Source: Nannocystis bainbridge
GTDB lineage: Bacteria; Myxococcota_A; Polyangia; Nannocystales; Nannocystaceae
Direction: 5' to 3'
Assembly: GCF_028368995.1 (NCBI RefSeq)
Contig: NZ_JAQNDL010000003.1
Span: forward strand, 2,656,001-2,720,000
DNA length: 64,000 bases
The position numbers and the translations under genes were made by a program. The notes under the pieces are model-generated. The model saw only the letters and a program-made list of their open reading frames with translations. It was not told the origin of the DNA and made no database searches. Below are positions 4,990-32,610 of this stretch, in pieces (position 1 is the stretch's first letter; every line of letters starts with the position of its first letter).

Positions 4990-5158
4990 CGCGCGACGCT
5001 GGGGGCGCGGGCCCAGCAGCGGCAGCACAGCCTCGCTGTGGACCCGGTGGCGCGCGCGATGGTTTCGCCGCCTGCACGGTCTAGCCTGCCGCTGCGGTGC
5101 CCCGGGCGGCGCCAGAATGCCGCTGACAACCGCGGCGACGCGAAGTATGGTGCCGCCC

Positions 5159-7072
5159 ATGCTTCGTCCACGCGTCGCCGCGTTCCTGGTCCTCCCGTTG
5201 CTCCCCGTGATCGCCTGTCAGGGCGGCGCCGAACAACAACAGCCGGCGGCGCAGAAGGGCAAGCCGGCGCGGGTCGTCGACAGGAAGGGCGACGGCAAGG
5301 CCGAGACCAAGCTCGAGGGCAAGGAGGTCGAGAAGGCCCCGGGCCAGGCCGCCGAGGCCAGGGCGTTCGTCGAGCGCGTCGACGGCGAGCTGCGCGCGCT
5401 CGCGGTCGCCTCGAGCAAGGCCGAGTGGGACAAGAACACCAACATCACCGACGCCACCGAGAAGGCCGCGGCCGACGCCAACGAGAAGTTGATGGAGTTC
5501 ATGGCCAGGACCATCAAGGAAGCCACGACCTTCACCGGCGGCGACATCGACCCCGAGACGGCGCGCAAGCTGCACCTGCTCAAGGTCACCGCCAGCCCGC
5601 CGCCGGCCCCCGGCGACCCCGACAAGCGCAAGCGGCTGGCCGAGCTCGGCGCCAAGATGGAGGGCATCTACGGCAAGGGCAAGGCGTGCGAGGGCGCGAA
5701 GTGCAAGGACCTCGGCGCGCTCGAGGACATCATCGGCACCAGCCGCAAGTACGACGAGCTGCTCAAGGCGTGGACCGGCTGGCACAAGATCGCCGTCGAG
5801 CTGCGGCCGCTGTATCAGGAGTTCGTCGGCCTCGCCAACGAGGGCGCCAAGGAGATCGGCTACAAGGACCTCGGCGAGCTGTGGCGCGCCGGCTACGACA
5901 TGAGCCCGGCCGACTTCGAGCAGGAGACCGAGCGGCTGTGGACGCAGGTCCAGCCGCTCTACGACAAGCTGCACTGCTACGTGCGCGGCAAGCTGGCCGA
6001 CAAGTACGGCAAGGACAAGGTCCCGGCCGAGGGCCTGATCCCGGCGCACCTGCTCGGCAACATGTGGGCGCAGGAGTGGGCCAACATCTATCCGCTGGTC
6101 GAGCCGTTCCCCGGGGCCGCCAGCCTCGACGTCACCGGCGCGCTGAAGAAGGCCAAGTACGACGAGGTCAAGCTGGTCAAGCTCGGCGAGTCGTTCTTCA
6201 CCTCGGTCGGCCTCGACCCGCTGCCGGCGACCTTCTGGGAGCGCTCGATGCTGCAGAAGCCGAAGGACCGCGAGGTCGTGTGCCACGCGAGCGCCTGGGA
6301 CGTCGACTTCAACGACGACCTGCGGATCAAGATGTGCATCAAGATCAACCAGGAGGACCTGGTCACGGTCCACCACGAGCTCGGGCACAACTATTATTAT
6401 CACTACTATTACAAGCTGCCGCTGCTGTTCCAGAACGGCGCCCACGACGGCTTCCACGAGGCGATCGGCGACGCGATCGCGCTGTCGATCACGCCGGCCT
6501 ACCTCAAGCAGATCGGCCTCATCGACGCGGTCCCGGCCGACGACAAGGGCCTCATCAACCTGCAGATGCAGGACGCGCTCGAGAAGATCGCGTTCCTGCC
6601 GTTCGGCAAGCTGATCGATCAATGGCGCTGGGACGTGTTCTCCGGCAAGACCGCGCCGGAGCAGTACAACGAGGCCTGGTGGGCGCTGCGCGCCAAGTAC
6701 CAGGGCATCGCCCCGCCGGAGGGCCGCCCGGACCCCGAGTTCTTCGACGCCGGCGCGAAGTACCACATCCCGGCCAACGTGCCGTACACCCGCTATTTCC
6801 TGGCGCGGATCCTCCAGTTCCAGTTCCACAAGGCGCTGTGCGAGGCCGCCGGTCACACCGGGCCGCTGCACGAGTGCTCGATCTACGGCAAGACCGCCGC
6901 CGGCGACAAGCTCAAGGCGATGCTCGCCCTCGGCTCGTCCAAGCCGTGGCCCGAGGCGATGGCCGCCCTCACTGGCACCAAGCAGATGGACGCCGGGGCG
7001 ATGATCGAGTACTTCGCGCCGCTCGAGAAGTGGCTCGACGAGCAGAATCAGGGCAAGAAGTGCGGCTGGTGA
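5159..7072 (+). CDS. M2 family metallopeptidase (ACE-like peptidyl-dipeptidase), probable lipoprotein
   Basis: HHELGH, GFHEAIGD, AHLLGNMWAQ, CHASAWD and KYHIP motifs; lipobox-like VIAC. Confidence 0.93.
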   Translation: MLRPRVAAFLVLPLLPVIACQGGAEQQQPAAQKGKPARVVDRKGDGKAETKLEGKEVEKAPGQAAEARAFVERVDGELRALAVASSKAEWDKNTNITDATEKAAADANEKLMEFMARTIKEATTFTGGDIDPETARKLHLLKVTASPPPAPGDPDKRKRLAELGAKMEGIYGKGKACEGAKCKDLGALEDIIGTSRKYDELLKAWTGWHKIAVELRPLYQEFVGLANEGAKEIGYKDLGELWRAGYDMSPADFEQETERLWTQVQPLYDKLHCYVRGKLADKYGKDKVPAEGLIPAHLLGNMWAQEWANIYPLVEPFPGAASLDVTGALKKAKYDEVKLVKLGESFFTSVGLDPLPATFWERSMLQKPKDREVVCHASAWDVDFNDDLRIKMCIKINQEDLVTVHHELGHNYYYHYYYKLPLLFQNGAHDGFHEAIGDAIALSITPAYLKQIGLIDAVPADDKGLINLQMQDALEKIAFLPFGKLIDQWRWDVFSGKTAPEQYNEAWWALRAKYQGIAPPEGRPDPEFFDAGAKYHIPANVPYTRYFLARILQFQFHKALCEAAGHTGPLHECSIYGKTAAGDKLKAMLALGSSKPWPEAMAALTGTKQMDAGAMIEYFAPLEKWLDEQNQGKKCGW

Positions 7073-7188
7073 GCTGAGCCCACGCGCGCACCATGAGCGA
7101 AGAGCCGGCTCTCGCGGTGCGAGGGTCGGCGCTTTCGTTCGGCGCTCGCCGCCTGTGACCGGCGTCGATTCGGCGTATGCTGGCGAGC

Positions 7189-8046
7189 ATGCGCCGAGTC
7201 GTCGGTTCCGTGGTGATGGTCCTGGCGTGCGGGCCCGGGCCCGCGGACGAGTCCGCGGGCATCACGAGCGCCTTCACGAGCAGCACCGCCGGCGAAGAGG
7301 CGAGCGCGCCGACCACCGCGATCACGACCGGCGGTGAGACCTTCGTCGGCTGTGACATCGTGCTGCGCGGGGATGTCGACGACACCGCCTCGGTGCAGGC
7401 GGCCCTCGACGGCGCGAGCGACGGCGCCACGATCTGCTTCGAGGGAGTCTTCGCGCTCGGGCCGATCCACGGGGCCCGGCGCAACGCGCTCGGGATCCTC
7501 GTGGTCGGGTCCACCGGCGTGGCGCTGTTCGGCAGCGACATCGAGGGCAACGACGGCGACAACTTCGCCCCGCCCGGCACGCTCGCGGCGGCGATGCCTC
7601 CGCACGTCGGGGTGATGGTGCTCGCCAGTGACGCCGTCGAGGTCCACGGCAATGCGATCGCCGACAATCCGACCACCGGCGTCGCGGTCGTCAGCCTCGC
7701 GGCCCTGCTCGGTTTGAACCTGCTGCCGGCCGATCACGGGCTCGGGTTCGACGGCTACCCCGAGACTGTCGACATTCACGACAACCTCATCGAAAACAAC
7801 GGCCTCGCGCCCGCCGAGCTGTTCCGCGACGGGTTCATGCTCGACCCCATGGCCCAGCTCGCGTGGGACGGGGTCGTCGACCTCGCCAAGGACAACGGCG
7901 AGGGCCAGCTCGACCTGTGCATCCGCGCCAACGGCGACGCCGACTTCGTCGACTTCGATGCGCTCGGGCTCGGCGCCGGCAAGTCCTTCGACCTCGCCCC
8001 GCACGACTGCGCCCACCCGCCGCTGCCGCCGGTCGAGGTGCCGTGA
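7189..8046 (+). CDS. Parallel beta-helix lipoprotein, apparently internally shortened
   Basis: Lipobox VLAC, Thr/Ser linker, VQAALDGA..G.TI, NFAPPG, VEVHGNAI..N and C-terminal HDCAHPPLPPV, all typical of the beta-helix family. Confidence 0.6.
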   Translation: MRRVVGSVVMVLACGPGPADESAGITSAFTSSTAGEEASAPTTAITTGGETFVGCDIVLRGDVDDTASVQAALDGASDGATICFEGVFALGPIHGARRNALGILVVGSTGVALFGSDIEGNDGDNFAPPGTLAAAMPPHVGVMVLASDAVEVHGNAIADNPTTGVAVVSLAALLGLNLLPADHGLGFDGYPETVDIHDNLIENNGLAPAELFRDGFMLDPMAQLAWDGVVDLAKDNGEGQLDLCIRANGDADFVDFDALGLGAGKSFDLAPHDCAHPPLPPVEVP

Positions 8047-11193: not shown

Positions 11194-11706
11194 ATGAAGA
11201 TCGGCATCGAACTGCTGCGCGACCCGACCCGCGTCCTCGACCTGTGGAAGCGCCTGTCCGCAAAGACATTCGGCAAGCAGCTGTTCGCGCGCGCCATCTC
11301 GCTGGCGGTGCCCTACACCGGCAGCATCTCGCCGCTGGTGCTCGAGCTCGAGGAGGGCCGCGCCAAGGTGCAGATGCGCGACCGCTGGGGCGTGCGCAAT
11401 CACCTCCGCAGCGTGCACGCGGTCGCGCTGATGAACCTCGGCGAGGCCGTGACGGGCCTGGCGGTGATGAGCCTGCTCCCGCCCGGGGCGCGAGGCATCG
11501 TGCGCGAGCTGGCGATGGAGTACGTGAAAAAGGCGCGCGGGACGATCACCGGCGACGCTCGCGTAGAGGTGCCTGCGGGCTCGGGGACGCATGAATTCGA
11601 GGTCACCGGCGAGCTCCGCAACAGCATCGGCGAGGTCGTCGCGCGGGTGCGGGCCCGCTGGCGCATCGACGTGCCCGAAGCCGACGGCGCCGCAGCCGCC
11701 AGCTGA
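11194..11706 (+). CDS. PaaI/hotdog-fold thioesterase (DUF4442-like)
   Basis: PYTGSI, VRNHLRSVHAVALMNLGE and EYVKKARG motifs. Confidence 0.85.
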   Translation: MKIGIELLRDPTRVLDLWKRLSAKTFGKQLFARAISLAVPYTGSISPLVLELEEGRAKVQMRDRWGVRNHLRSVHAVALMNLGEAVTGLAVMSLLPPGARGIVRELAMEYVKKARGTITGDARVEVPAGSGTHEFEVTGELRNSIGEVVARVRARWRIDVPEADGAAAAS

Positions 11707-12210
11707 GCTCACGGGGCTGTCGAACGAAAATTCCAAGCCGCCGCGACATGAAGCGACGGCCCCAGCTCACGGAGCGGACGCACGGCATGCGCGGCCGAGG
11801 CGGGTGCGCCGGCGACCACGCGGTGAAGCGCACGCGCGTGGTGCCGACGCGATCTCGCAGGCGCGACGCGTGAGCGCGAGCCGCCCGGCGAGAGGTCCGC
11901 GGTAGCTCCAGAGGACATGTCCTTCGGGACATCTTGTGCACGGCGCGTTCGTCCGGCGAGGCGGGTGAGGTGGCTCGGCGGTGGCAGGTCCTCCCGGTAG
12001 GCACCGCCCGCGCAACGCCGCGCGGGGAAGTGAGGAAGCGTCGGCCGCGGCGCCCCGTCGCTGCGCCGCGGTCGCTGCAGACGCATGTTTCACCCGGCCT
12101 CCGCGCGCGCCGGCGCGAGCGGCTGGCGACCGCGATCCGGCCCCGGCGCGCGGCCCTGGGCGCAGTCACGCGCGCGCCTGCGTGCTCGCGGGCTGATAGG
12201 CTCGCCGCGC

Positions 12211-13920
12211 ATGACCGCGAGCGCCTCGACCTTCCCTCCGCTGCTCGTCACCCCGCCGGCTGCCGGCTTCGATCGCGCCGCCGCGCGTGACCTGGTCAAA
12301 GAGTCAGGTCTCGCCGCCGCCCTGCACAAGCTGGTGCGGGCGCCGTTCGGGCACACGGTGCTGAGCCTGCGGGCGCTCGAGGCCGCGATCGAGGCGACCG
12401 ACCTGGCGCTGCAGGCCGGCGACGCGCTGCACGCGGCGCTGCTCGAGGACCTGGCCCGCGCCGGCTCGCTGGCGCTGCCGGAGCCGACCCGCGACCAGCG
12501 GATGTTCGTCGGCGCGTTCACCCTGACGGTCCTCGGCGACGCCACGGCGCCGCGGCTGGCCGTGGTCGCGCCGACGCCGGAGGTCCACGGCGAGCTCGAG
12601 TCGGACGGCCTCGAGGACCTGCTGGTCCGGCCCGCCCGCGAGGCGGTCAAGAGCGCGTTGACCATGGCCGGCAAGTACCTCGAGGTCCAGGCCCAACGGC
12701 AGCCGGGCGCCACCTCGGCGCGGCTCGACGAGCGCGAGGTGTGGGCGGTGACGACCCTGCACGCGTTCGTGCTGCAGCTCGCGGGCGCGCTGCGGCGGCT
12801 GACCCACGCCGGCCGCCTGCGGCCGTTCGGCGTGGCCCTGGCCCAGCGCAAGGTCGTGGTCGGCGAGCTGCGCTACGAGGGCTTCCAGGCCCGCGGCGCC
12901 GAGGGCCCCGCCAGCGACCTCAAGCCCGTCAAGCTGCAGGACATCGTCGGCAATCAGGAGTACCTGCAGGCCGGGCTCAAGCTGGCGCGCGACGTCGCCG
13001 CGTATGACCTCAAGGCCAGGCGCGGGCCCAAGCAGCTCAACCCGGTGCTGTTCGGCCTGGGCCGGCCCGGCTGCGGCAAGACGATCACCGCCCACGCGAT
13101 CGGCAACTACTTCCTCGACTTCTGCAAGCAGCGCGACGTCCCGGCCCGCTTCAAGGTCATCCGCCGCACCGACTGGGCCTCGTCGTACCAGAACGCCAGC
13201 GCGGCGACCCTGGTCAAGATCTTCAAGGAGGAGGTCTACGGGTTCGAGGGCGTGTGCGGGGTCTACTGGCCGGACATCGACACCGCGTTCGCCTCGCGCG
13301 GCTCGGGCGACCTGCGCTCGGAGGAGAAGAACAACCTCGGCGCGGTGTTCGGGATCTTCGACGGCACGCTGATCCCCAAGGACGGCAAGTGGTTCATGAT
13401 CTGCGACGCGAACTACATGCAGATGGACGAGGCGACGCGCTCGCGGATCGCCCAGAACCCGTTCACCGTGCGCGGGCCGACCACCGCCGACGACTACGTG
13501 CACCTGCTGCGCGACGTGCTGCTCGGCGACCTGCGGCCGTTCGTGGCCCACGGCGAGGACGCCGGCTGGGCCGAGGTCGGCGCCGACCTGGTCAAGGCCG
13601 ACCTCAGCGGCCGCTCGGTCGAGAGCGTGGCCAACAACATCCGCGCGTTCGTGCAGGACTTCGAGTACCCCGACGAGTACTTCCGCGCCGACTTCGAGCG
13701 CCGCCGGCAGCTTATCCACGAGCTGTCGCGCCGGGTCGACATCGCCGCGGTCCGGCGGGAGGTCGCCGACTACGTCAGCTTCCACCGCGAGGCCGAGGAG
13801 CGCGAGGCCAGGGACCGGTTCGAGCGCGAGGTCGAGGCGATGGTCCAGCAGCTCAACGCCGGCCGGGCCGCCACCGCCCGCGCGGCCGCGGCCGCGGCGC
13901 GAGAGATCGTCGGCGACTGA
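12211..13920 (+). CDS. AAA+ family ATPase with atypical Walker B
   Basis: Walker A GRPGCGKT; VYWPDID at the Walker B position; sensor-1 DAN; MDEATRSRI arginine-finger region. Confidence 0.8.
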   Translation: MTASASTFPPLLVTPPAAGFDRAAARDLVKESGLAAALHKLVRAPFGHTVLSLRALEAAIEATDLALQAGDALHAALLEDLARAGSLALPEPTRDQRMFVGAFTLTVLGDATAPRLAVVAPTPEVHGELESDGLEDLLVRPAREAVKSALTMAGKYLEVQAQRQPGATSARLDEREVWAVTTLHAFVLQLAGALRRLTHAGRLRPFGVALAQRKVVVGELRYEGFQARGAEGPASDLKPVKLQDIVGNQEYLQAGLKLARDVAAYDLKARRGPKQLNPVLFGLGRPGCGKTITAHAIGNYFLDFCKQRDVPARFKVIRRTDWASSYQNASAATLVKIFKEEVYGFEGVCGVYWPDIDTAFASRGSGDLRSEEKNNLGAVFGIFDGTLIPKDGKWFMICDANYMQMDEATRSRIAQNPFTVRGPTTADDYVHLLRDVLLGDLRPFVAHGEDAGWAEVGADLVKADLSGRSVESVANNIRAFVQDFEYPDEYFRADFERRRQLIHELSRRVDIAAVRREVADYVSFHREAEEREARDRFEREVEAMVQQLNAGRAATARAAAAAAREIVGD

Positions 13921-14876
13921 TGCTGTCCCCAGGGACATTGCCGCCAGGACATGCTGTTTCGGGCATGTCCTCGGGGACATGCCCCGAGGTGTGGGTGATC
14001 GACGCGACGGCGCTGCTGTTCCGCGCCTACTACGGGATGCCGGCCAGGCTGTCGCCGGCGGGCGAGCACGTCGGCGCGGTGCTGGGGCTCGGGCACCTGC
14101 TGCGCGGGCTGCTGCGGCGGGCGCCGGAGCGGGTGGTGCTGGTGTTCGACGCCGGGCGCATGACGTTTCGCAACCGCATCGACCCGCGCTACAAGGCCAA
14201 CCGTGGCGAGCCGCCGCCCGACCTGGCGCCGCAGTTCGAGCTGGCGCGGCGGCTCGGCGCGGCGGCCGGGTTCGTGGCGCTGAGCGTGCCCGACTTCGAG
14301 GCCGACGACCTGATGGCGACGCTGGCCCGCGGGGCGGCGGCGGCCGGCCTGCGCACGCGGCTGCTGAGCGTCGACAAGGACCTGTGCCAGCTCGTATGCG
14401 ACGAGTCGCCCGGGGTGGTGCTCGAGGACCCGCGCACGCAGGCGGTCTGCGACGCGGCCGGGGTGCAGCAGCGCATGGGCGTGCGGCCGTCGCAGGTGGT
14501 CGACTACATGGCGCTGGTCGGCGACACCAGCGACAACGTGCCCGGGGTCGCAGGCGTGGGGCCCAAGGCGGCCCAGGCCCTCATCGCCGCGTTCGGCGAC
14601 CTCGATTCGCTGTACGCCTCGCTCGGGCAGGTCGCCACGCTGCCGCTGCGCGGGGCCAAGGGGCTCTCGGCCAGGCTCGAGGCCGGGCGCGAGGCGGCCT
14701 TCCTCGCGCGCACGCTGGTGCGGCTCCACGACGCGGTCCCGCTCGGCGCGCTCGACCTACACGCGCACACGCGCTGGCGCGGGCCAGGCGAGGACGCGGA
14801 GGAATTCTTCGCCGCGCTCGGCAGCCCGGGCGCGCTCCGCGGGTTCAGGTCGATCGCGGCGCAGGATCGTGCGTGA
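13920..14876 (+). CDS. 5'-3' exonuclease / flap endonuclease (PolI N-terminal-like)
   Basis: VIDATALLFRAYYG, VFDA, YKANR, FEADD, DKD and LVGDTSDNVPGVAGVGPK (H3TH). Start is 13920 (TGATG overlap) or 13965. Confidence 0.9.
   Translation: MLSPGTLPPGHAVSGMSSGTCPEVWVIDATALLFRAYYGMPARLSPAGEHVGAVLGLGHLLRGLLRRAPERVVLVFDAGRMTFRNRIDPRYKANRGEPPPDLAPQFELARRLGAAAGFVALSVPDFEADDLMATLARGAAAAGLRTRLLSVDKDLCQLVCDESPGVVLEDPRTQAVCDAAGVQQRMGVRPSQVVDYMALVGDTSDNVPGVAGVGPKAAQALIAAFGDLDSLYASLGQVATLPLRGAKGLSARLEAGREAAFLARTLVRLHDAVPLGALDLHAHTRWRGPGEDAEEFFAALGSPGALRGFRSIAAQDRA
13924..13979. repeat. Phased 4 x 14-bp array of TGTC-N6-GACA variants
   Basis: TGTCCCCAGGGACA|TTGCCGCCAGGACA|TGCTGTTTCGGGCA|TGTCCTCGGGGACA. Confidence 0.85.
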
Positions 14877-14918: not shown

Positions 14919-16163
14919 ATGGCGACCGGCCCCGAAATCGCGTCACCGCCCGAAAGTCCGCCGCCGCCGGGCCACTCGCGCGCGCTGGCGACGGTGTGGT
15001 TCACGCTCTTCCTCGACCTGGTGTCGTTCGGGATCGTCATCCCGGTGCTGCCCTTCTACGCCAAGAGCACCGGCGCGTCGGAGGGCCTGATCGCGCTGCT
15101 GGCGACCGCGTACTCGGCGGCGCAGTTCGTGATGTCGCCGGTGCTCGGCCGCCTCAGCGATCGCCACGGCCGACGCCCGGTGATGCTGATCTCGATCGCC
15201 GGCAGCACGATGGCGATGCTGACCCTCGGGTTCGCGCAGGCGCTGTGGATGCTGTTCCTGTCGCGCACGATCAGCGGGGTGTGCAACGCCAACGTGTCGA
15301 CCGCGTACGCCTACGTGGCCGACCGCGTGCCGCCGCACCAGCGCGCCCGCTACATGGGCATGATGGGCACCGCGGTCGGCCTCGGCTTCATCGTCGGGCC
15401 GTCGCTCGGCGGCCTGCTGGCGCGCGCCGACTGGCCGCAGTTCCCGTTCTTCGTCGGCGCGGGGCTCAGCCTGCTCAACTTCTTGATGGCGCTGGTGTGG
15501 CTGCCCGAGAGCCACCGCCAGCGCGCGGCCGCCAGCGCCGGTCCGCCGCCGCCGCGCCCGTCGCTGCTGGCGGTGGCCCGCGATCGCACGTTCTGGCGCA
15601 GCCAGATCGGCGTGATGGTGACGGTCTACTTCGCCTTCTTCTGCGCCTTTGCGGCCATGGAGGCGACCTTCGCCCTGTTCACCGAGGCCTGCTTCGGCTG
15701 GGGCGAGCAGCAGACCGGCCGGTTCTTCGCGTTCGTCGGCACGGTCATCGTCCTGTTCCAGGGCTTCCTGGTCGGCCGCGCGGTGGCCCGCCTCGGCGAG
15801 CGCCGCACGCTGGCCTCCGGCCTGATGATGAGCACCACCGGCTTCGTGCTGCTGTGCATGTCGCCGTCGTGGCTGTTCGTGCTGTTCGGCGGGTTCTTCA
15901 TCGCCGGCGGCAACGGCCTCATCATGCCGAGCATGTCGGCCCTGGTGTCGCGCAACAGCACCAGCGAGAACCAGGGCATCAACGCCGGCTTCACCCAGTC
16001 GGCCGGCGCGCTCGGGCGCATCGCCGGGCCGATGATCGCGGGGGTCCTGTTCGAGGTGGTCGGGCCGCGCGCGCCGATGGGCTCGTCGGCGCTGCTGGTG
16101 GTGCTGGTGTGCGTGATGGTGCTGGCGCGGGTCCACGAGCAGCGCCCCGAGCCCGGGCGCTGA
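14919..16163 (+). CDS. MFS transporter (TetA/DHA1-like)
   Basis: Motif A GRLSDRHGRRPV, GFIVGPSLGG and about 12 hydrophobic segments. Confidence 0.9.
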   Translation: MATGPEIASPPESPPPPGHSRALATVWFTLFLDLVSFGIVIPVLPFYAKSTGASEGLIALLATAYSAAQFVMSPVLGRLSDRHGRRPVMLISIAGSTMAMLTLGFAQALWMLFLSRTISGVCNANVSTAYAYVADRVPPHQRARYMGMMGTAVGLGFIVGPSLGGLLARADWPQFPFFVGAGLSLLNFLMALVWLPESHRQRAAASAGPPPPRPSLLAVARDRTFWRSQIGVMVTVYFAFFCAFAAMEATFALFTEACFGWGEQQTGRFFAFVGTVIVLFQGFLVGRAVARLGERRTLASGLMMSTTGFVLLCMSPSWLFVLFGGFFIAGGNGLIMPSMSALVSRNSTSENQGINAGFTQSAGALGRIAGPMIAGVLFEVVGPRAPMGSSALLVVLVCVMVLARVHEQRPEPGR

Positions 16164-16167
16164 GGTC

Positions 16168-16860
16168 CTAGCGATCGCGCTGCAGCCGGCCGTCCTCGCC
16201 CCAGCTCGAGGTGCGATAGGCGACGAGGCCGCTGCCGGGATGGTGCCGGTCGGGGTGAATGGTGCGCACGTGGACGTGCTGCGACGGACCCCAGCCGAAC
16301 CCGAGCGAGAGCCGGCCGATCGTCAGCGCCTCGGTGGTCGCGCCGAGCAGCCGCAGCTTCGCGTCGTCGCGGCTGACGCCGGCGAAGTAGCCCTCCTGCG
16401 CCTGCAAGACGGTGTGCACGAGGTGGGCCGGCGCGTCGCCGCGCGCACGGGCCCGCGACCACACGAGCGCCGCGAGCTCGTCGAGCCGGTCGTAGCGGAC
16501 CACCACGAACGAGGCGACGCGACAGACGAAGGTGTCGTCGCCGGCGAACACCACCTCGGCCTCGACCTCGACGGGCACGCGCACGCCGTCGGGGCCCTCG
16601 ACGAACAGGTCGCCGCGCGTCGACTCGAGCCGCAGCTCGGCGCCGGCCGAGAAGTCGGTCGGGCCGACCGGGGTGACGATCGTCGGCCAGTCGCGCAGAT
16701 CCGCCCCCCAGCGGTCGAGGTGATGGTGCGCGACGAAGCGCTCGTGATCGAAGCTGCCGACGTCGCCGAGCCGCAGCTCGCCGGAGAACGGCGGCCACGC
16801 CCCGAAGCCCAGCTCCATGACGCGGCTCGTGTGACGATTCCAGGCGCTGGACAGACTCAT
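16168..16860 (-). CDS. Hypothetical protein, gasdermin-like pore-forming fold suspected
   Basis: 230 aa, GAGGGA RBS, normal codon usage. The patterns GFGAWPP...LRLGDVG.F....F, EVVF....FV and LVHTVLQA resemble bacterial/fungal gasdermin-like proteins (by eye). Confidence 0.55.
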   Translation of the reverse strand: MSLSSAWNRHTSRVMELGFGAWPPFSGELRLGDVGSFDHERFVAHHHLDRWGADLRDWPTIVTPVGPTDFSAGAELRLESTRGDLFVEGPDGVRVPVEVEAEVVFAGDDTFVCRVASFVVVRYDRLDELAALVWSRARARGDAPAHLVHTVLQAQEGYFAGVSRDDAKLRLLGATTEALTIGRLSLGFGWGPSQHVHVRTIHPDRHHPGSGLVAYRTSSWGEDGRLQRDR

Positions 16861-16946
16861 CGATCCCTCGTACGAGGCATAGCAATCGCCCGCGTGATCG
16901 CCTGTATCACTCGAGAATTTTTTCGCAGCGATTACGCTTCGCATAC

Positions 16947-17789
16947 ATGACCCAAATCGACGAGATCACGGCACGCGCCGCCGCCGCCGTGGCCACCGCG
17001 GACGCGCTCCTGATCTGCGCAGGCGCCGGCATGGGCGTCGATTCCGGGTTGCCCGACTTTCGCGGGCCCGAGGGCTTCTGGCGCGCGTATCCGGCGGCCC
17101 GCGAGCTCGGGCTCCAGTTCCACGACCTCGCCGACCCGCGGTGGTTCACCCGCGATCCGGCCCTCGCCTGGGGCTTCTACGGCCACCGCCTGAACCTGTA
17201 TCGCGCGACAGCGCCGCACGCCGGCTTCGCGCTGCTCCGGCGCTGGGCCGCGCGCACGCCCGCGGGGGCGTTCGTCTACACGTCGAACGTGGACGGGCAG
17301 TTCCAGCGCGCGGGCTTCTCCGAGGCGCAGGTCGAAGAGTGCCACGGATCGATCTTGCACCTGCAATGTCTGCAGGGCTGCGACCTGCCGCCCTGGCCCG
17401 TCCCGCAGGCGGCCGTGTCGGTCGATGTCGCGACGCTGCGCGCCGCCCCTCCGTTCTTCACGTGCCCGCGCTGCGCCGGGCTGGCCCGCCCCAACATCAT
17501 GATGTTCAGCGATTTCGCGTGGGACTCGACCCGCGCGAACGAGCAGCGCGAACGCTCGCGCGCGTGGCTGCAGGCGCAGGAGCAGGCGGGCGCGCGCGTG
17601 GCGGTGATCTGCCTCGGCTCGGGCACCGCGATCCAGACGGTGCGCCTGACGGCCGAACGCGCGGCCCGTCGCCCCGGCAATACGCTGATCCGCATCAACC
17701 CCCGCGACCCATGGGTGCCGAGCGGCCAGCTCTCGCTGGCCACGGGGGCGCTCGCAGGCCTGACGGCGATCGACGCAGCGCTGGGCTGA
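16947..17789 (+). CDS. SIR2/sirtuin family NAD-dependent deacylase
   Basis: GAGMGVDSGLPDFRG, TSNVDG, ECHGS, Zn-ribbon Cys pairs, RPNIMMF and IRINP. Confidence 0.9.
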   Translation: MTQIDEITARAAAAVATADALLICAGAGMGVDSGLPDFRGPEGFWRAYPAARELGLQFHDLADPRWFTRDPALAWGFYGHRLNLYRATAPHAGFALLRRWAARTPAGAFVYTSNVDGQFQRAGFSEAQVEECHGSILHLQCLQGCDLPPWPVPQAAVSVDVATLRAAPPFFTCPRCAGLARPNIMMFSDFAWDSTRANEQRERSRAWLQAQEQAGARVAVICLGSGTAIQTVRLTAERAARRPGNTLIRINPRDPWVPSGQLSLATGALAGLTAIDAALG

Positions 17790-17928: not shown

Positions 17929-18609
17929 TCATGTCCTTTCAGACATGTGTCGATCGGTCCTGTCACTCGCTGCGGCGCACGCCGTCTCGGCGCGGCCGGT
18001 GAACGCGGCGACGAAGGCCGGGTGGCGGGCGATGAGGGCCAGGGCGCGGGCCAGGAGGGTGCGGCCGGGCTCGACGCGGTGCCAGGTCGAGGCGCCGCTC
18101 GGGTGCGGCAGGCAGATCGCGTCGGCCTCGACCCCGTGCCAGCGGACCCGCCGGGCCTCGCCGATCACCTCGACCAGCGGGCCCTTGTGGCCGAGGACTT
18201 GCTCGATCGCCACGCCGCCGACCGGGATCACGAGCCGCGGCTGCAGGATGTCGACCTCGCCGGCCAGGAATTGTTGGCAGCGCGCCATCTCGTCGCGGTC
18301 CGGCTTGCGGTCGCCGCCGCCGCCCGCCTTGCCGGGGAAGCAGCGCGCGACCGCCGACATGTACACGCTGTCGCGGAACTCCTGCTCGCTGCGACCGGCG
18401 GCGGCCTCGAACCAGCGGAACAGGGTCTTGCCGGCCGTCCACGCGAACGGTCGCCCGAACCCGCCCTCGCGCGGACCGGGTGCCTGGCCGACGAGCAGCA
18501 CGGGCGTGACGATCGGCGGGCCGTGCACGACGGGGCCGATCATCGCCGGGCAGGCCGTGCACGCCTCCAGCTGTCGGTGCAGCACGGTCAGTCGAGTTCG
18601 CGGGTCCAT
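17929..18609 (-). CDS. Uracil-DNA glycosylase family protein
   Basis: CxxC..M, LVGQAPG..E, RPFAWTAG, RCFPG and LPHPSG motifs. Confidence 0.88.
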   Translation of the reverse strand: MDPRTRLTVLHRQLEACTACPAMIGPVVHGPPIVTPVLLVGQAPGPREGGFGRPFAWTAGKTLFRWFEAAAGRSEQEFRDSVYMSAVARCFPGKAGGGGDRKPDRDEMARCQQFLAGEVDILQPRLVIPVGGVAIEQVLGHKGPLVEVIGEARRVRWHGVEADAICLPHPSGASTWHRVEPGRTLLARALALIARHPAFVAAFTGRAETACAAASDRTDRHMSERT

Positions 18610-18841
18610 CGTGGGGCGTCGCGCGGCAGTGTGAATCACGCCTCGTGGGCGCGCCAGCGCGCACGCGAGGACTCACGCGCGCGCGGCCCTGCCGCCGCTG
18701 CCCGCGGTGCGGGCGTCGGCGACGGGCTTCACCTGGCCCGAGGACCATCCGTGAGCGGCGTACTCTGCCTGTCCCAAAGGCCAGCTACGTCGCGGCTTCA
18801 GTCTGTCGCGCCAGGGCGGACTGGCAATGATACGACCTGGC

Positions 18842-19500: not shown

Positions 19501-22278
<2,778 letters not shown>

Positions 22279-22294
22279 CAGCTACCTCGAAGAA

Positions 22295-25021
<2,727 letters not shown>

Positions 25022-25025
25022 ATCC

Positions 25026-26000
25026 TCAGGGTACGATCTTGCCGCTCTGAATCAAACCGCCGGAAGCGAACGGAGCGCCGCAGGTCGGGATGCTGCAGCC
25101 GAGCGCCGGGAGCGGCAAACGGCTGTTGCTCGGATTCAGACAGACCGCGCCGTTCGGTCCCCACTCAGCCTCGACGACGTAGGGCTTGTTCGGGTCGACG
25201 TTCTGGATGCCGATCTGATCGAGGACGTGGATCGGCGTGCCGAGCAACGTGTGCGACTGTCCGTCGCCGCAGTAGTCCGCGCGCAACATTCGTGTACAGG
25301 CCTGATGGTAGTCGGCCAGCGACGTGCCGTTCTTGCTCGCCCACGGGCGGTAGCCGAACAGCACGCACTTGGCGAGACCGCCGTCTTTGCAGGCGAACGT
25401 GATCGCCTTGTCGGGCCTCGGCGAGACCTTCGCGCCGGTGGCCGGATCCCAGACGTCGTTCAGGAGCAACGCCCGAGTGCGCTTGCCCGCCTGGTCGATG
25501 CACAGCGGATCGTTGTGCAGCGAGACCTGGAGATCCATGTCGTACTCCCACACGTCCGAGAAGCCGGCCACAGGATAAGCGAACTTGAGCCAGACATACT
25601 TCCAGTAGGTCGTCGCGCCTTCCTTCACCTTGAAGTCGAAGGTCGTGTCCTCGACCTCCCAGTCGGTGTAGCCGCCGACATTGAGCATCCCGCCCACCAG
25701 CGAGCCGGTGTTCACATAGTCGCCGTCGGGCAGCCAGATGTCGTAGAGCTGGATGTAGTCGGTCTGGCTCCCGTCCCGGTAGAGCTTCGTGTTATTGAGC
25801 CTGCTGCCGTTGAGGTTCCAACCGTTGAGGTTCCAGCCGTTGAGGTTCCAGCCGTTCTCATGGGCGCTGCGCGTCCGAACGGCCTCTTCTTCGCCGAAGC
25901 CCGCTCCCTCGTCTTCCCCATCCACCCCGTCGCAGCCGAGACACCCGAACGCGAGCACCACCGCACCACTCACCACCACCACGCCAGTCTTGAACGCCAT
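25026..26000 (-). CDS. ADYC-domain secreted protein/lipoprotein with NGWNL pentapeptide repeats
   Basis: GGAGGA RBS, signal/lipobox-like GCLGC, (NGWNL)x3, ACTRMLRADYCGDG and EAEWGPNGAVC. Confidence 0.85.
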   Translation of the reverse strand: MAFKTGVVVVSGAVVLAFGCLGCDGVDGEDEGAGFGEEEAVRTRSAHENGWNLNGWNLNGWNLNGSRLNNTKLYRDGSQTDYIQLYDIWLPDGDYVNTGSLVGGMLNVGGYTDWEVEDTTFDFKVKEGATTYWKYVWLKFAYPVAGFSDVWEYDMDLQVSLHNDPLCIDQAGKRTRALLLNDVWDPATGAKVSPRPDKAITFACKDGGLAKCVLFGYRPWASKNGTSLADYHQACTRMLRADYCGDGQSHTLLGTPIHVLDQIGIQNVDPNKPYVVEAEWGPNGAVCLNPSNSRLPLPALGCSIPTCGAPFASGGLIQSGKIVP

Positions 26001-26204
26001 CGTTCTCTCCTCCGCGAAAAGAAAACCGCTTATCTTCGATCCTATCCGTCGCTGCCGGCGGCGTGAAGGCTCGGGGGCTGGGCGAGAACGCGCGTGCGTG
26101 ATTCACGGGCTTTTGCGGCTGCCTGGGGGGTTTGGGGTCGGCTCACGTCGAGACGTGGCGCGCCGCGGGTCGCTCCTTCTATGATGGGGGGGACCTCTGC
26201 TGCG

Positions 26205-27641
26205 ATGACGACCCGCGACGACCCCGCGCGACGAGAAGGACGCTCCGCAAGTGTGGTGTCGTCGCGTGACAACGGTTCGCGTTGGACGCTGGTGATCGTC
26301 GGCCTCGCCTTGCTCGTGGGAGTCGCGACCACGGCGGCGGACGAACATCGTTTGACCGTCGTCGTGATCGGCGCGCTCCTCCTCGGGGGGCACCTCGCGG
26401 CGACGGTGTACCTGGGGCATGGCGAGGTTTCACGGGTTCGCATCGGGGCGTCGCTCTGGACAGTGATCGTCGGCGCCCTGGCGATCGCCGCGCCGAGCGT
26501 CGCTGGCGCGTCGACGCCGTTTTGGTGTTTGCTGCTCCCAGTGGTCGTCGTCTCCGTGCACGCCACCAGCGCCGCTACGGGGATCACCGCCACCGCGCTC
26601 GGGGCGGCCGCGGGTGCGGGCCTCTTCATCGCGGGCGCAGGATCGATCGCGTGGTTGGCGGCCGCCGCGATCGCCGGGGTCGGTCTGCTCGCGGCTGCCG
26701 AGCAGCGCCGCGGTCAGGTGCGGGACGACGACCTCCGGCGCCGCGAGGGCGAGCTCGCCGGCGTGCGGGCCGAGTTGCGAGATCTCCGGAGCCAGCACGT
26801 CGCCGGCGCCGAGGGGCGGCTCGTCGCCTTGACCCGCGCCAACCAGGCCCTGCAGTCCGAGGTCGAGCGCGGGCGGCGGGTCCTCGAGGAGGCGCTCGAC
26901 GCCAGTCGGACCAAGACCTCCTTCCTCCTCAAGATCAGCCACGAGCTGCGCACCCCGCTCAACGCGATCGTCGGTTACACCGAGCTGCTGCTCGAGCACC
27001 CGGAGGAGGCCGAGGCGGCCGAGCTCAAGGCCGACCTCACGCGGATCCTCGGGGCCGCGCACGAGCTGCTGGCGCTGATCGACAGCGTGCTCGACCTGGC
27101 CCGGCTCGAGGCCGGCAAGTTCGAGCTGCACATCGAAGAGTTCCCGCTGCTCGACCTGGTCCACGAGTGCGTCGCCGCCGTCACGCCGCTGGCCGAGCGC
27201 GGGCGCAACAAGCTCAAGCTCAAGCTCTCGCGCGAGCTCGGCACCATCCGCAGCGACCGCACGCGCCTGCGGCAGGTGCTCATGCAGCTCATGGGCAACG
27301 CCTGCAAGTTCACCCACGGCGGCCTCGTCGAGCTGCGCGTCGAGCCGATGGTCACCATGACCGGCCCGGTCTACCTCCTCAGCGTGCGCGACAACGGCGT
27401 CGGCATCGAGCCGGGCTACATGCCGCGGATCTTCACCCCGTTCTCGCAGGCCGACGACTCGCCGACCCGCCGCTTCGGCGGCCTCGGCGTCGGCCTCGCG
27501 CTGTGCCGCCACTACTGCACTTTGCTCGGCGGCGACATCACCGTCGAGAGCGAGCTCGGCAAGGGCTCGGTGTTCCGCGTGCAGGTGCCGGCGTTCGTCC
27601 GCGACCCGCGCGACGCCAGCGTCCTCGTCTCGGCCTTCTGA
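26205..27641 (+). CDS. Membrane sensor histidine kinase (orphan)
   Basis: N-terminal TM helices, ISHELRTPLNAI H-box, GNACKF N-box, DNGVGI and GGLGVGL G-boxes. Confidence 0.9.
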   Translation: MTTRDDPARREGRSASVVSSRDNGSRWTLVIVGLALLVGVATTAADEHRLTVVVIGALLLGGHLAATVYLGHGEVSRVRIGASLWTVIVGALAIAAPSVAGASTPFWCLLLPVVVVSVHATSAATGITATALGAAAGAGLFIAGAGSIAWLAAAAIAGVGLLAAAEQRRGQVRDDDLRRREGELAGVRAELRDLRSQHVAGAEGRLVALTRANQALQSEVERGRRVLEEALDASRTKTSFLLKISHELRTPLNAIVGYTELLLEHPEEAEAAELKADLTRILGAAHELLALIDSVLDLARLEAGKFELHIEEFPLLDLVHECVAAVTPLAERGRNKLKLKLSRELGTIRSDRTRLRQVLMQLMGNACKFTHGGLVELRVEPMVTMTGPVYLLSVRDNGVGIEPGYMPRIFTPFSQADDSPTRRFGGLGVGLALCRHYCTLLGGDITVESELGKGSVFRVQVPAFVRDPRDASVLVSAF

Positions 27642-29550: not shown

Positions 29551-30468
29551 CTATCGCCGCCGGCGATTCATTGCATACGCGATACCTGCCTTGAGCGACC
29601 CCAGGCTGACGATCGATCCGAGGTCGGCCCCGAGGCTCACCAGCGTCGCCGCCAGCCCCGGGCGGATCCCCGTCAGCACCGCCTCGGCGCCCAGCAGCGC
29701 CGCGCTACGGGCGGCCCGGAGCAGCGCATCGGCCGTCTGCGCGTCGATCTCCGACACGCCTGTAATGTCGAGGATCACCGTGCGCGCCCGCGTCGTCGCC
29801 ACCCCGTCGAGCAGCGTCTGCAGCACCCGCTCGACCCGGCGGGGGTCGAGCGCGCCGATCAGCGGCATCACCACCGTCTCCTCGTCGATCGGGATCAGCG
29901 GGGTCGACAGCGCCAGCAGGGCCTCGTCCTGGGCGCGGATCACCTCCTCGCGCATGCGCATCTCGACCCGCTGGCCCTCCGCCTGCTTGATGTCGGTCTC
30001 GTCCATCGTCACCCCGCGCAGCCCGATCGGCGTCCCGTCGTCGCTGCGGATCAGCGACATCCGGCTCGTGACCCACAATGTGCGGCCGTCGCGGGTGACC
30101 CAGCGGTACGACGATTCGCCGGTGCCGTCCTTGAAGATCGCGTGCGCCTGGCCCAGCGCCTGCTCGCGATCCTCGGGGTGGATCAGCTCGACCCAAAAGT
30201 TGGGCTGCTTCCATTCATCGACCGAATAGCCCGACATCGCATGGATGCGATCGCTGACCCAATCGACGGTCATGCGCTGCGGTGATTGTTCGAAGTAGCT
30301 CTCCCACAGGATGCCCGGGATGTGGGCGACCAGCCCCTCGAGCCGCTCGCGCAGCAGCCGTTCGTAGAGCGCGAGCTGGTGGTTCGCGTGCTCGAGCTCG
30401 GCCACGCGGGCCTGCGCTGCGCCCAGGGCGGCCCGCAGCGCCTCGACTTCGTCCTGTCGTTCCGTCAC
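29551..30468 (-). CDS. RsbR-like PAS-STAS protein
   Basis: Coiled coil, PAS (LIHPEDR) and STAS (LSTPLIPI, MPLIGALD, ILDITGV, LTGIRP). Confidence 0.88.
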   Translation of the reverse strand: MTERQDEVEALRAALGAAQARVAELEHANHQLALYERLLRERLEGLVAHIPGILWESYFEQSPQRMTVDWVSDRIHAMSGYSVDEWKQPNFWVELIHPEDREQALGQAHAIFKDGTGESSYRWVTRDGRTLWVTSRMSLIRSDDGTPIGLRGVTMDETDIKQAEGQRVEMRMREEVIRAQDEALLALSTPLIPIDEETVVMPLIGALDPRRVERVLQTLLDGVATTRARTVILDITGVSEIDAQTADALLRAARSAALLGAEAVLTGIRPGLAATLVSLGADLGSIVSLGSLKAGIAYAMNRRRR

Positions 30469-30729
30469 GGCCACGCAGTCTATCAAGGCGGGGGCCTCGC
30501 CATCGCCGCCGATCGCCGTTCTCCTGCCACCGGGGCGGCGACCCGTCCTGGAGCACCGCCGGCTGCCGCGATTTCGTTGCCGTGGCGGGTACCGACAATC
30601 GCCGCCTTGGGGCGAAAAACCGAGACAAGTCTCACACATTTTCGACCGCAGCCTTCCCATTCTCTGCGGCCCCGCGGCGATAATGCGCTGCCGTCGCCGG
30701 CAGGGGCTGGCGGTGGGAAAGGCCGCCTC

Positions 30730-32610
30730 GTGCTCTCGATCGCCGTTCTCGCGCTCGCCTCGACCTCGCTGGCGTCCGACCCTCCGACCTGGGTGTTCTT
30801 CGCCGACAAACAGGTCACCGCCGGTGAATTGCAGCCCGCGCTCGAGCGGCGCGCCGAGCAGCTCGCGCCGCGAGCGCTGCGCCGGCGAATGCGGGTCCGC
30901 GGCGACCGTGGCGTCGACGTCCGCGATCTCCCGCTCGCCTCCCCGTACCTGCAGGCCGTCGTCGCCACCGGCGTGCAGATCCGTGCCACCTCGCGCTGGC
31001 TCAACGCCGTCAGCGTCGACGCCGACGCCGCCCAGCGGGCCGCGATCGCCGGCTTGCCGTTCGTCGCCGGCATGCGCCCCGTCGCGCGCACGCGCGGCCA
31101 CGATCACGCCCCGGCCTGGACCGAACAGTCGCCGGCCTCCGCGGCCTACGGCGTCGCCGAGACCCAGCTCGCCCTGCTCGGCGTCCCGGCCCTGCACGCG
31201 TGTGGCCTGACCGGCGCCGGCGTGGTGATCGGCGTGCAGGACAGCGGCTTCTCGCTGCAGCACGCCGCCTTCGCCGGTCTGCACGTGCTGGCCGCCCGCG
31301 ATTTCGTGCAGGGCGACGACGAGGTCGCCGACCAGCCGGGCGACGACGAGGGCCAGGATCGCCACGGCACCGTCGTGCTGTCGCTGCTGGCCGGCGACGA
31401 CGGCGACGCCTTCTCCGGCGTCGCCCCGGGCGCCTCGGTCATCCTCAGCAAGACCGAGCGCATCGGCGAGGAGCAGCCCTACGAGGAAGATCTTTACGTC
31501 GCCGGCCTCGAGTGGATCGAGGGCATGGGCGCCGACCTGTTCACCGCCTCGCTCGGCTACTACGAATGGTACGAGCACCCGCAATACGACGGCAAGACCG
31601 CCGTCGTCTCGCAGGCCGCCGCGGTGGCGCTCGCCAACGGCCTCGTCATGTTCACCGCCAACGGCAACGAGGGCCCCGAGCCGGGCACGCTGATCGCCCC
31701 GGCCGACGTCGACGGCATCATCGCGCTCGGGGCCACCGACCTCGAGGGCCAGGTCGCCGGCTTCTCCTCGCGCGGTCCCACCAGCGACGGCCGGATCAAG
31801 CCCGACCTGCTGGCTCCGGGTCAGGGCGTATGGATGGTCCAGCCGGGTACCGACAATGAATATACCCAGGGCAACGGCACCAGCCTCGCCACCCCGCTGG
31901 CCGCTGGCGTCGGCGCATTGCTGCTCGAGGCCTACCCCGAGCTCACCCCGGCCCAGATGCTGGCGCTGCTGCGCGCCACCGCCTCGCAACCCGACGCGCC
32001 CGACAACGACCGCGGCTGGGGCATGATCGGCGGCCCCGCGGCTGCCGGCCTCCATTGCACCTGCACCGACGGCGACCGCGATGGTCACTACGCGGTCGCT
32101 TGCGGCGGCGACGACTGCGACGACGCCGACCCGGCGCGCCACCCCGGGGCCGCCGAGGTGTGTGACGGTCGCGACAATGACTGCGACGGCGACCTCCCGG
32201 CCGACGAGGTCGACGGCGACGGCGACGGCGTGCGCGTCTGCGCCGGCGATTGCGACGACGCCGATCCATCGCGCTGGCCGGGCGCCGTCGAGGACCCCGA
32301 CGATTGCATCGACAACGACTGCGACGGCGACGGCGGCCTCGCCTGCGCCCCGACCACCGGCGCCCAGACCTCGAGCGGAGGCAGCGGCACCGGCGAGCAC
32401 GAGCCCACCACCACGAACACGACGTCGGGCACCACCGATGCCGACGCCACGGGCCTGACCGACGGGGCCAGCGACAGCGGCGGGGCCGTCGAGGGCGCGG
32501 GTTGCGGCTGCAGCACCGGCGGTCCTGCGGCCCCGCTGGGCCTGCTTCTCGGCCTCGTCGGCATGAGGCGGCGGCGGTCGCGTTCTCGGGTATCCTCGCC
32601 CCCGCAGTGA
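30730..32610 (+). CDS. S8 subtilisin-like serine peptidase with Cys/Asp-rich metal-binding repeats and MYXO-CTERM
   Basis: Catalytic QDSG, HGT and GTSLATP motifs; DCDD..P...PGA.E.CDG.DNDCDG repeats; GCGC-TM-RRRR tail. Confidence 0.9.
   Translation: MLSIAVLALASTSLASDPPTWVFFADKQVTAGELQPALERRAEQLAPRALRRRMRVRGDRGVDVRDLPLASPYLQAVVATGVQIRATSRWLNAVSVDADAAQRAAIAGLPFVAGMRPVARTRGHDHAPAWTEQSPASAAYGVAETQLALLGVPALHACGLTGAGVVIGVQDSGFSLQHAAFAGLHVLAARDFVQGDDEVADQPGDDEGQDRHGTVVLSLLAGDDGDAFSGVAPGASVILSKTERIGEEQPYEEDLYVAGLEWIEGMGADLFTASLGYYEWYEHPQYDGKTAVVSQAAAVALANGLVMFTANGNEGPEPGTLIAPADVDGIIALGATDLEGQVAGFSSRGPTSDGRIKPDLLAPGQGVWMVQPGTDNEYTQGNGTSLATPLAAGVGALLLEAYPELTPAQMLALLRATASQPDAPDNDRGWGMIGGPAAAGLHCTCTDGDRDGHYAVACGGDDCDDADPARHPGAAEVCDGRDNDCDGDLPADEVDGDGDGVRVCAGDCDDADPSRWPGAVEDPDDCIDNDCDGDGGLACAPTTGAQTSSGGSGTGEHEPTTTNTTSGTTDADATGLTDGASDSGGAVEGAGCGCSTGGPAAPLGLLLGLVGMRRRRSRSRVSSPPQ

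Follow-up and report, generated by a model that had tools for sequence, protein, structure and literature searches.

A plausible gasdermin-like protein, orphan in sequence and apparently tail-less, in a core locus of the myxobacterium Nannocystis bainbridge

In the current picture, bacterial gasdermins (bGSDMs) are suicide effectors that carry a palmitoyl group, are triggered by a protease and are encoded in phage-defence islands. To our knowledge, a fungus and a placozoan are so far the only organisms in which activation of a gasdermin without cleavage has been demonstrated. Here we analyse a candidate gasdermin-like protein, P0001 (230 amino acids), which is encoded on the minus strand at 16168..16860 of a 64,000-nucleotide stretch of Nannocystis bainbridge DNA (RefSeq assembly GCF_028368995.1, contig NZ_JAQNDL010000003.1, positions 2,656,001 to 2,720,000); this whole stretch is called the window. 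An earlier note, made from the letters of the window alone, had pointed to the gene as gasdermin-like by eye and had suggested that it might be a cell-death or defence effector controlled through acylation by a divergently transcribed sirtuin.

The bGSDMs are described as proteins of ~240-270 amino acids with a palmitoylated cysteine at position 3-4 that is needed for toxicity (Johnson et al. preprint; PMC10153256); in the Vitiosangium bGSDM, the C4A substitution inactivates the protein, and the N-terminal cysteine is required for toxicity (PMC10153256). An inhibitory C-terminal peptide of 16-30 residues follows a flexible loop of ~12 residues that holds the cleavage site, and this tail caps the palmitoyl cysteine (Johnson et al. 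preprint). A protease is adjacent in 43/50 bGSDMs and absent in 7/50 (Johnson et al. preprint), and the genes usually lie in defence islands (Johnson et al. preprint; PMC10153256). According to a review, S-palmitoylation controls both bGSDM and GSDMD, and eukaryotes have gasdermins that consist of the N-terminal domain only (RCD-1 and TrichoGSDM) and whose activation needs no cleavage (PMC12547243). Solitary gasdermin-fold toxins, the pyroptolysins, have been described in bacteria in a preprint (bioRxiv 10.64898/2026.10.05.756811).

The P0001 gene is real, coding and under constraint. Within a window of 68-75% GC, its GC content per codon position is 0.72/0.51/0.90 (0.90 at third positions, GC3), and among the five Nannocystis orthologues the ratio of nonsynonymous to synonymous substitution (dN/dS) is 0.31-0.41 in 9/10 pairs, with a value of 0.76 in the closest pair, for which dS is 0.05. 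The program-made list of open reading frames (ORFs) uses the first ATG and gives 16168..16944 on the minus strand (258 amino acids, stop codon 16168-16170), whereas a start at the ATG at 16860 yields a protein of 230 amino acids. A Shine-Dalgarno-like GAGGGA (16864-16869, minus strand) lies 3 nt 5' of the ATG at 16860, and the start context CGAGGGATCGATG is identical in 5/5 Nannocystis genomes (the window and four other loci, L001 to L004). The 28-codon upstream extension is not preserved at L001, the single locus at which we read the printed upstream sequence by eye, and the first 14 residues of the shorter form, including W7, are conserved down to relatives with 22-25% identity. Because of this ribosome-binding signal, the conserved start context, the unconserved extension and the conserved N-terminus, we take the ATG at 16860 to be the true start; all four other loci carry an ORF of 693 nt, so that the protein has 230 amino acids in 5/5 orthologues. 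The earlier note had described a 230-residue ORF with a good ribosome-binding site, and this description is borne out. Its quoted motifs can also all be found, in the order it gave: GFGAWPP (18-24), LRLGDVG (29-35), AELRLE (74-79), VEVEAEVVF (97-105), LVHTVLQA (147-154), AKLRL (167-171) and GLVAYR (211-216), with 14 residues after the last. The N-terminus reads MSLSSAWNRH..., and cysteine is absent from the first 100 residues; no signal peptide was evident in the N-terminus by eye, no predictor having been run.

To place the fold, we built AlphaFold2 (AF2) models of P0001 and of P0008, a relative that is 25% identical, and compared each with 350,542 PDB chains using Foldseek. The P0001 model (predicted local distance difference test score, pLDDT, 76.2; predicted template modelling score, pTM, 0.76) consists of an N-terminal helix at residues 3-14, a long series of beta-strands and one central helix at 126-139, with low confidence at 80-98 and 173-186. 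The best 14 rows listed for this model were all gasdermins or RCD-1, with probabilities mostly of 0.85-1.00. They include the GSDMD pore (6vfe, E 1.4e-4) and, at rank 2, the RCD-1 pore (8jyz, E 4.8e-4), together with the GSDMA3 pore, GSDME, Trichoplax gasdermin and GSDMB; the first protein that is not a gasdermin appears only at rank 17 with a probability of 0.07. The P0008 model is of higher confidence (pLDDT 87.0, pTM 0.83, no segment below 50), and the top 15/15 rows listed for it were gasdermins or RCD-1, with the RCD-1 pore at E 4.1e-5 and 9.7e-5; cholesterol-dependent cytolysins (CDCs) and MACPF proteins are found only below the gasdermins, at probabilities of at most 0.25. Across both models the best rows reach probabilities of 0.97-1.00 and lower rows go down to ~0.44-0.9, the best matches are gasdermins in the pore state, and the alignments to gasdermin N-terminal domains cover the whole 230-residue length of P0001 (228-281 columns). 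Among bGSDMs, the template modelling (TM) score of the P0001 model is 0.41 to the Vitiosangium protein (8sl0) and 0.38 to the Runella protein, and the P0008 model matches 8sl0 at E 1.4e-4 with TM 0.44/0.45.

Protein language-model features gave a similar picture. An ESM Atlas feature search with P0001 led to clusters at values of 0.96-0.97, and in two of these clusters 11-12% of the members carry the Pfam label Bact_GSDM (PF26164); a search with the distant relative P0011 returned 0.97 against clusters that carry the same label (11% and 13% of members). The structure-based and language-model routes agree, and both work without sequence alignment to gasdermins. We consider it highly probable, as far as models can tell, that P0001 has the gasdermin fold. 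The earlier by-eye call of a gasdermin/RCD-1-like domain therefore agrees with two fold searches and two language-model searches.

The strands of the model are also visible as a pattern in the family alignment. Strands 68-78, 98-105, 146-154 and 168-172 show an alternation of hydrophobic with polar residues that is conserved family-wide; this is consistent with a pore former, though not specific to pore formers. Invariant positions are W22, F25, G32, G35, G66, V148, G157-Y158-F159, G173, G182, P203, W220 and G224; the alignment holds no invariant or nearly invariant cysteine or lysine.

We put the probability at about 0.5 that P0001 is a divergent, cytosolic gasdermin-like pore former that consists of the N-terminal domain only and responds to a non-obvious trigger. 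In such a protein, the N-terminal amphipathic and basic helix, together with the conserved loop region W-P-F...G-D-x-G-x-F, would bind the inner membrane; the membrane-bound protein would oligomerise; and the amphipathic beta-strand regions would then refold to form a large beta-barrel, a pore lethal to the cell that makes it. Binding to the membrane and the formation of pores are inferred here by analogy with solved gasdermin pores, and how the protein is activated is likewise an inference.

Several observations weigh against this reading. A constitutive pore former would be lethal, and therefore some unseen control must exist. TM scores to all gasdermins are just 0.22-0.45, with root-mean-square deviations of 10-19 Å, and fall short of the customary same-fold mark of 0.5; the AlphaFold and Foldseek check that the earlier note had proposed thus placed gasdermins and RCD-1 on top but at scores under that mark. 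The differing conformational states of gasdermins may explain the low scores. Both AF2 models were built on one shared, shallow alignment of 11 sequences. The Bact_GSDM label is carried by only 11-13% of the Atlas cluster members, and the recognition value for P0011 (1942) lies below the 2300 reliability mark of the tool, so that this search counts as weak evidence. Pfam contains no gasdermin family match for P0001 or six scanned relatives at E values up to 10, in a copy that may not include PF26164; PADLOC returned 0 matches for seven family members; and searches of PDB sequences with P0001, the profile of alignment A1 and P0015 as queries found no gasdermin at E <= 10. P0001 and its distant relatives are also without a cysteine comparable to the N-terminal palmitoyl cysteine of bGSDMs, and the locus shows housekeeping synteny and is not a defence island.

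Some of these points would also fit an unrelated beta-rich protein that was mis-modelled from a shallow alignment, so that the gasdermin resemblance would be spurious. TM scores of at most 0.45, deviations above 10 Å, models that rest on only 11 sequences and the silence of every sequence-profile method are what such an error would look like, and the text of the Atlas tool states that shuffled proteins reach a first match of at least 0.95 about once in 100. Nevertheless, two models, one of them with a pLDDT of 87, each put only gasdermins on top of 350,542 chains at probabilities of 0.97-1.00; two Atlas searches that start from members ~24% identical reach the same Pfam label; and a fold search of the viral BFVD library with the model gave 0 matches at E <= 0.001, so that the model does not match everything. 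We therefore regard a spurious resemblance as improbable.

By sequence, the P0001 family appears to be very small, comprising the Nannocystis orthologues and a handful of metagenomic proteins of ~230 residues. A word-indexed protein search returned seven proteins including the query, the rest being Nannocystis proteins (78-87% identity) or metagenome proteins. An exhaustive phmmer search of 1.84 billion representatives likewise found only seven proteins at E <= 0.001, namely the Nannocystis cluster, five proteins of ~230-290 amino acids (24-26% identity) and P0009 (1256 amino acids). We rejected P0009 as a relative and treat it as a repetitive, low-complexity artefact: its 11 matches are short and fall on query residues 50-75, and its Pfam matches are odd, with 0 stretches. 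As it was the sole long match, the phmmer search, which was run without length restriction, contains no credible longer relative. Two profile searches added P0014 and, marginally, P0015 (270 amino acids, E 3.6e-3), which hhalign relates to the family over residues 12-198 with a probability of 94.5%. P0009 and the 137-residue fragment P0007 were omitted from the alignments, P0014 is in alignment A2 only and P0004 in A1 only. P0007 is a N. pusilla fragment of the family in the protein database, while the target ORF at the N. pusilla locus (L003) is intact. The contigs of the distant members are only 1.3-3.3 kb long, and the search for loci used P0001 alone as query and thus reaches close relatives only.

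Other collections were equally silent. P0001 matches no NCBIfam family, and the P0001 family has nothing significant in PHROGs (rows at E 0.026-0.27 are noise). Pfam returned 0 families at E values up to 10 for P0001 and three of five distant relatives, whereas P0010, P0014 and the rejected P0009 gave rows that are at chance level and not gasdermins. In the PDB sequence searches we discarded designed TIM barrels (E 0.25) and spondin (E 1.6) as chance matches. A tblastn search of P0001 against plasmids found no match and one of P0008 against phages none; a match of P0008 in a Gemmatirosa plasmid (E 0.3) was discarded. We found no literature that joins gasdermin and Nannocystis, though an earlier listing of P0001 in the tables of the Johnson et al. 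preprint (50 genomic and 387 metagenomic bGSDMs) is possible; among the matches listed, judged by titles and the openings of abstracts, there was no paper on a myxobacterial gasdermin.

How does P0001 compare with the bGSDMs, represented by the Vitiosangium (7N51/8SL0) and Runella (7N52) structures and by PF26164? The two share a predicted fold, and 8sl0 gives the highest TM scores among the gasdermins for both models. At 230 amino acids, P0001 has the length of active bGSDM chains (228-233 amino acids in 8sl0 and 9a84), both are bacterial and cytosolic, Vitiosangium is likewise a myxobacterium, and the Atlas feature neighbours of P0001 and P0011 are labelled Bact_GSDM. In contrast, neither sequences nor profiles reveal a similarity between the P0001 family and bGSDMs. 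P0001 shows no clear inhibitory peptide of ~20-30 residues beyond the domain, and its gene has no adjacent caspase-like, CHAT or other protease and no defence island around it. Because several defining features of bGSDMs fail, we do not class P0001 as a member of that family on the sequences at hand.

The matter of the tail and the protease deserves closer attention, as P0001 might instead be a canonical protease-activated bGSDM whose protease lies elsewhere in the large Nannocystis genome; residues 211-230 (GLVAYRTSSWGEDGRLQRDR) would then be the inhibitory peptide, with the cleavage site in the loop at 203-210. The short inhibitory peptides and the preceding cleavage loop described for bGSDMs (Johnson et al. 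preprint) leave room for this. No stretch differs more between the orthologues than the loop at 203-210 (PDRHHPGS, PDHAQSSS, PDGDPAGN and PDRYCPGS), the part after this loop has the invariant residues W220 and G224 along with conserved hydrophobic positions, and the distant P0015 has a longer C-terminus. However, removal of 20 residues would leave ~210 amino acids, fewer than the 228-233 of active bGSDM chains, and residues 211-220 have a mean pLDDT of 91 over the 10-residue block, which is more in keeping with a strand of the core than with a peptide wrapped around the fold. P0001 also lacks the palmitoyl cysteine that a bGSDM tail caps. A protease is likewise missing within ~8-9 kb of the gene in five genomes, as judged from a Pfam scan of the window and from 12 flanking ORFs of the four other loci, 4 of which match no family, so that the absence of an adjacent protease that the earlier note had remarked on holds throughout. 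In the window, the protease domains that come closest are a Peptidase_M2 at 5117-7072 on the plus strand, ~9 kb from P0001, and a subtilase (S8) at 30286-32610, ~13 kb away. We find the hidden-tail alternative rather unlikely. P0015, a metagenome protein, has ~35-40 additional C-terminal residues and is without a Pfam, PADLOC or PDB sequence match; on sequence grounds, it could be a bridge from the P0001 family to tail-bearing canonical bacterial gasdermins.

That P0001 lacks an inhibitory tail is plausible, and its length, equal to that of a cleaved bGSDM, speaks for this, but the last 20 residues could serve as one. Since P0001 has the size of a cleaved bGSDM, no palmitoyl cysteine and no neighbouring protease, a protease from its own operon is most likely not what activates it. 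Regulation probably acts through expression, or through a partner or signal encoded at another site.

P0001 as a single-domain pore former resembles the eukaryotic gasdermins that consist of the N-terminal domain only more than it resembles bGSDMs, as far as the models indicate, minus the control devices known for them. Neurospora RCD-1-1/RCD-1-2 (8JYZ pore) gives the best Foldseek E value for the P0008 model and the second-ranked match for P0001. Both RCD-1 and P0001 are single-domain proteins of ~215-235 amino acids without a C-terminal inhibitory domain, and RCD-1 is described as cleavage-independent in the review (PMC12547243). The identity between RCD-1 and the family models over the structural alignments is 8-12%. 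RCD-1 differs in being eukaryotic and in being triggered by the meeting of two antagonistic allelic variants, and we found no paralogue of P0001 that might act as a partner of this kind in the window or at the four other Nannocystis loci. Trichoplax TrichoGSDM (8JYV/8JYW), which is among the top fold matches, is likewise a protein of ~250 amino acids with the N-terminal domain only and, according to the same review, is activated without cleavage; however, it is kept inactive as a disulfide-linked homodimer via loop cysteines, whereas the P0001 family has no conserved cysteine. The pyroptolysins have 325-400 amino acids with a C-terminal, sterol-sensing, CDC-like Ig domain, for which the 230 amino acids of P0001 leave no room.

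Around P0001, a block of ~7 kb that runs from a UDG-family glycosylase (17929-18639) through a SIR2 gene (16947..17789, plus strand), P0001 itself, a transporter of the major facilitator superfamily (MFS; 14919..16163, plus strand; MFS_1 E 5.9e-64) and a gene with 5'-3' exonuclease domains (~14031-14876) to an AAA ATPase (12085-13920, plus strand) is syntenic in 4/4 other Nannocystis genomes; for the exonuclease this rests on DNA-level conservation only. The transporter gene is convergent with P0001, ends 4 bp before its stop codon, and is 89-91% identical and syntenic in 4/4 loci. The rest of the window is housekeeping in content (MTHFR, asparagine synthase, LigD, a carboxylic-acid-reductase-like enzyme and others), and PADLOC has no match for P0001, the sirtuin or the AAA protein. 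With housekeeping surroundings of this kind, the role as a defence effector that the earlier note had raised is not indicated.

A setting like this would suit a gasdermin-like fold that was co-opted for a non-lytic role (for example the binding of lipids or membranes, or some other housekeeping task), with pore formation lost. The gene occupies a core-genome, syntenic site among UDG, sirtuin, MFS, 5'-3' exonuclease and AAA ATPase genes in 5/5 genomes, a defence or toxin context is absent, no autoinhibition device can be identified, and a dN/dS of 0.3-0.4 speaks of steady purifying selection and not of arms-race turnover. Against this, the best fold matches are gasdermins in the pore state, and the amphipathic strand patterns are kept across relatives of 22-25% identity. 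A non-lytic role thus seems unlikely to us, a little more so than a hidden tail, and a divergent pore former remains the reading that we prefer.

The sirtuin that is divergent from P0001 was central to the proposal of the earlier note, in which it would control the pore former by acyl removal and the gene pair would form a cell-death or defence unit. The 86-bp gap between the two genes is confirmed (16861..16946, with the SIR2 gene starting at 16947), and this divergent arrangement is kept in 5/5 Nannocystis genomes with conserved intergenic blocks (GTAA(A/T)CGC, CGAAAAAA and GATTGCTAT.CCTCGT.CGAGGGATCG). Acylation does regulate some gasdermins, as S-palmitoylation of bGSDM and GSDMD illustrates (PMC12547243). 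However, the survey of homologue neighbourhoods that the note had called for found, at the four Nannocystis loci, that the sirtuin pair is kept but so is the whole block from UDG to AAA, and because the entire block is syntenic within the genus, the adjacency carries no specific signal. Sirtuins deacylate lysines, but the P0001 family is without an invariant or nearly invariant lysine or cysteine. The sirtuin itself (280 amino acids; SIR2 family, PF02146, E 1.7e-17) is class III/SIRT5-like; among solved structures it is closest to the deacylases SIRT5 and Sir2-Af1, its best NCBIfam match is to the NAD-dependent protein deacylase subfamily (NF001753) at 113 bits, below the cutoff of 243, and no PADLOC defence SIR2 model matches it, so that by sequence it reads as an ordinary SIRT5/CobB-like deacylase. 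The window also holds a second SIR2-family gene 25 kb away (41830-42882, minus strand, 350 amino acids; PF02146 E 3e-44 at residues 127-297). A functional link between P0001 and the sirtuin, or an acylation switch, is therefore unsupported by these comparisons, and we judge it very unlikely. As an observation on its own, the second SIR2 protein has an N-terminal extension of ~125 amino acids, and its gene adjoins that of a PAS-STAS protein (43216-44247).

A perfect palindrome of 12 bp, CCTCGTACGAGG, lies at 16866-16877 on the minus strand and overlaps the Shine-Dalgarno sequence of P0001. At this place, the other four Nannocystis genomes keep CCTCGTTCGAGG, with 5+5 inverted arms and a variable centre. 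Judged by sequence, the palindrome may act as an operator, or it may form an RNA element where the ribosome binds. A promoter and terminator scan of 16000-17100 gave 0 sites of either kind and no sigma-70-like consensus promoter.

Several further features of the neighbourhood can be noted. The otherwise uncharacterised AAA protein at 12085-13920 (611 amino acids, a weak Pfam AAA match at E 1.3e-5) keeps 93-96% identity between Nannocystis species, a stronger conservation than that of the genes beside it. The Peptidase_M2 at 5117-7072 is a full-length bacterial homologue of angiotensin-converting enzyme (E 4.8e-230, 578/581 profile positions). Beyond UDG in the window, the scan found a DUF2325 protein and two Ser/Thr-kinase-TPR proteins, the latter encoded by tandem genes on the minus strand (19501-25021, ~910-925 amino acids each). 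An ADYC-domain protein (25026-26000) and a histidine kinase (26094-27641) come next, and the run from 19501 to 27641 is typical myxobacterial signalling content. At the four other loci, 4/12 flanking ORFs match no family, and all four are one orthologous, membrane-anchored protein of ~456 amino acids that adjoins UDG (L001 4514-6019, L002 4467-6026, L003 4215-5894, L004 4164-5534) and is 83-96% identical, without a Pfam family. In the window, this protein has no tblastn match, and the DUF2325 gene and the two kinase-TPR genes stand in its place; synteny therefore breaks just beyond UDG. At L003 (N. pusilla Na p29), tblastn recovered the sirtuin gene (7080-7914) as two pieces that overlap and the AAA gene (11194-12947) as four, which suggests frameshifts that stem from either assembly indels or pseudogenisation.

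Taken together, the models make it plausible that P0001 is a gasdermin-like protein that is orphan in sequence, tail-less, cysteine-less and protease-less and that belongs to a core myxobacterial locus. If it does not form pores, P0001 would be an example of the gasdermin fold in another use. If the family does form pores, it would break the bGSDM rules on tail, cysteine, protease and defence-island location together, and it would have done so while being invisible to sequence-based surveys. A more far-reaching version, which is tentative and which we think unlikely in full, is that P0001 is a bacterial counterpart of the gasdermins with the N-terminal domain only: tail-less, cysteine-less and protease-independent, fixed in the core genome, and killing its own cell during programmed lysis, be it developmental autolysis or suicide triggered by stress or infection, once switched on by expression or by a non-proteolytic signal. 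Were this true, cleavage-independent gasdermin activation would extend to bacteria and be a bacterial invention as well, and social, fruiting myxobacteria would offer a tractable candidate effector for regulated or developmental lysis.

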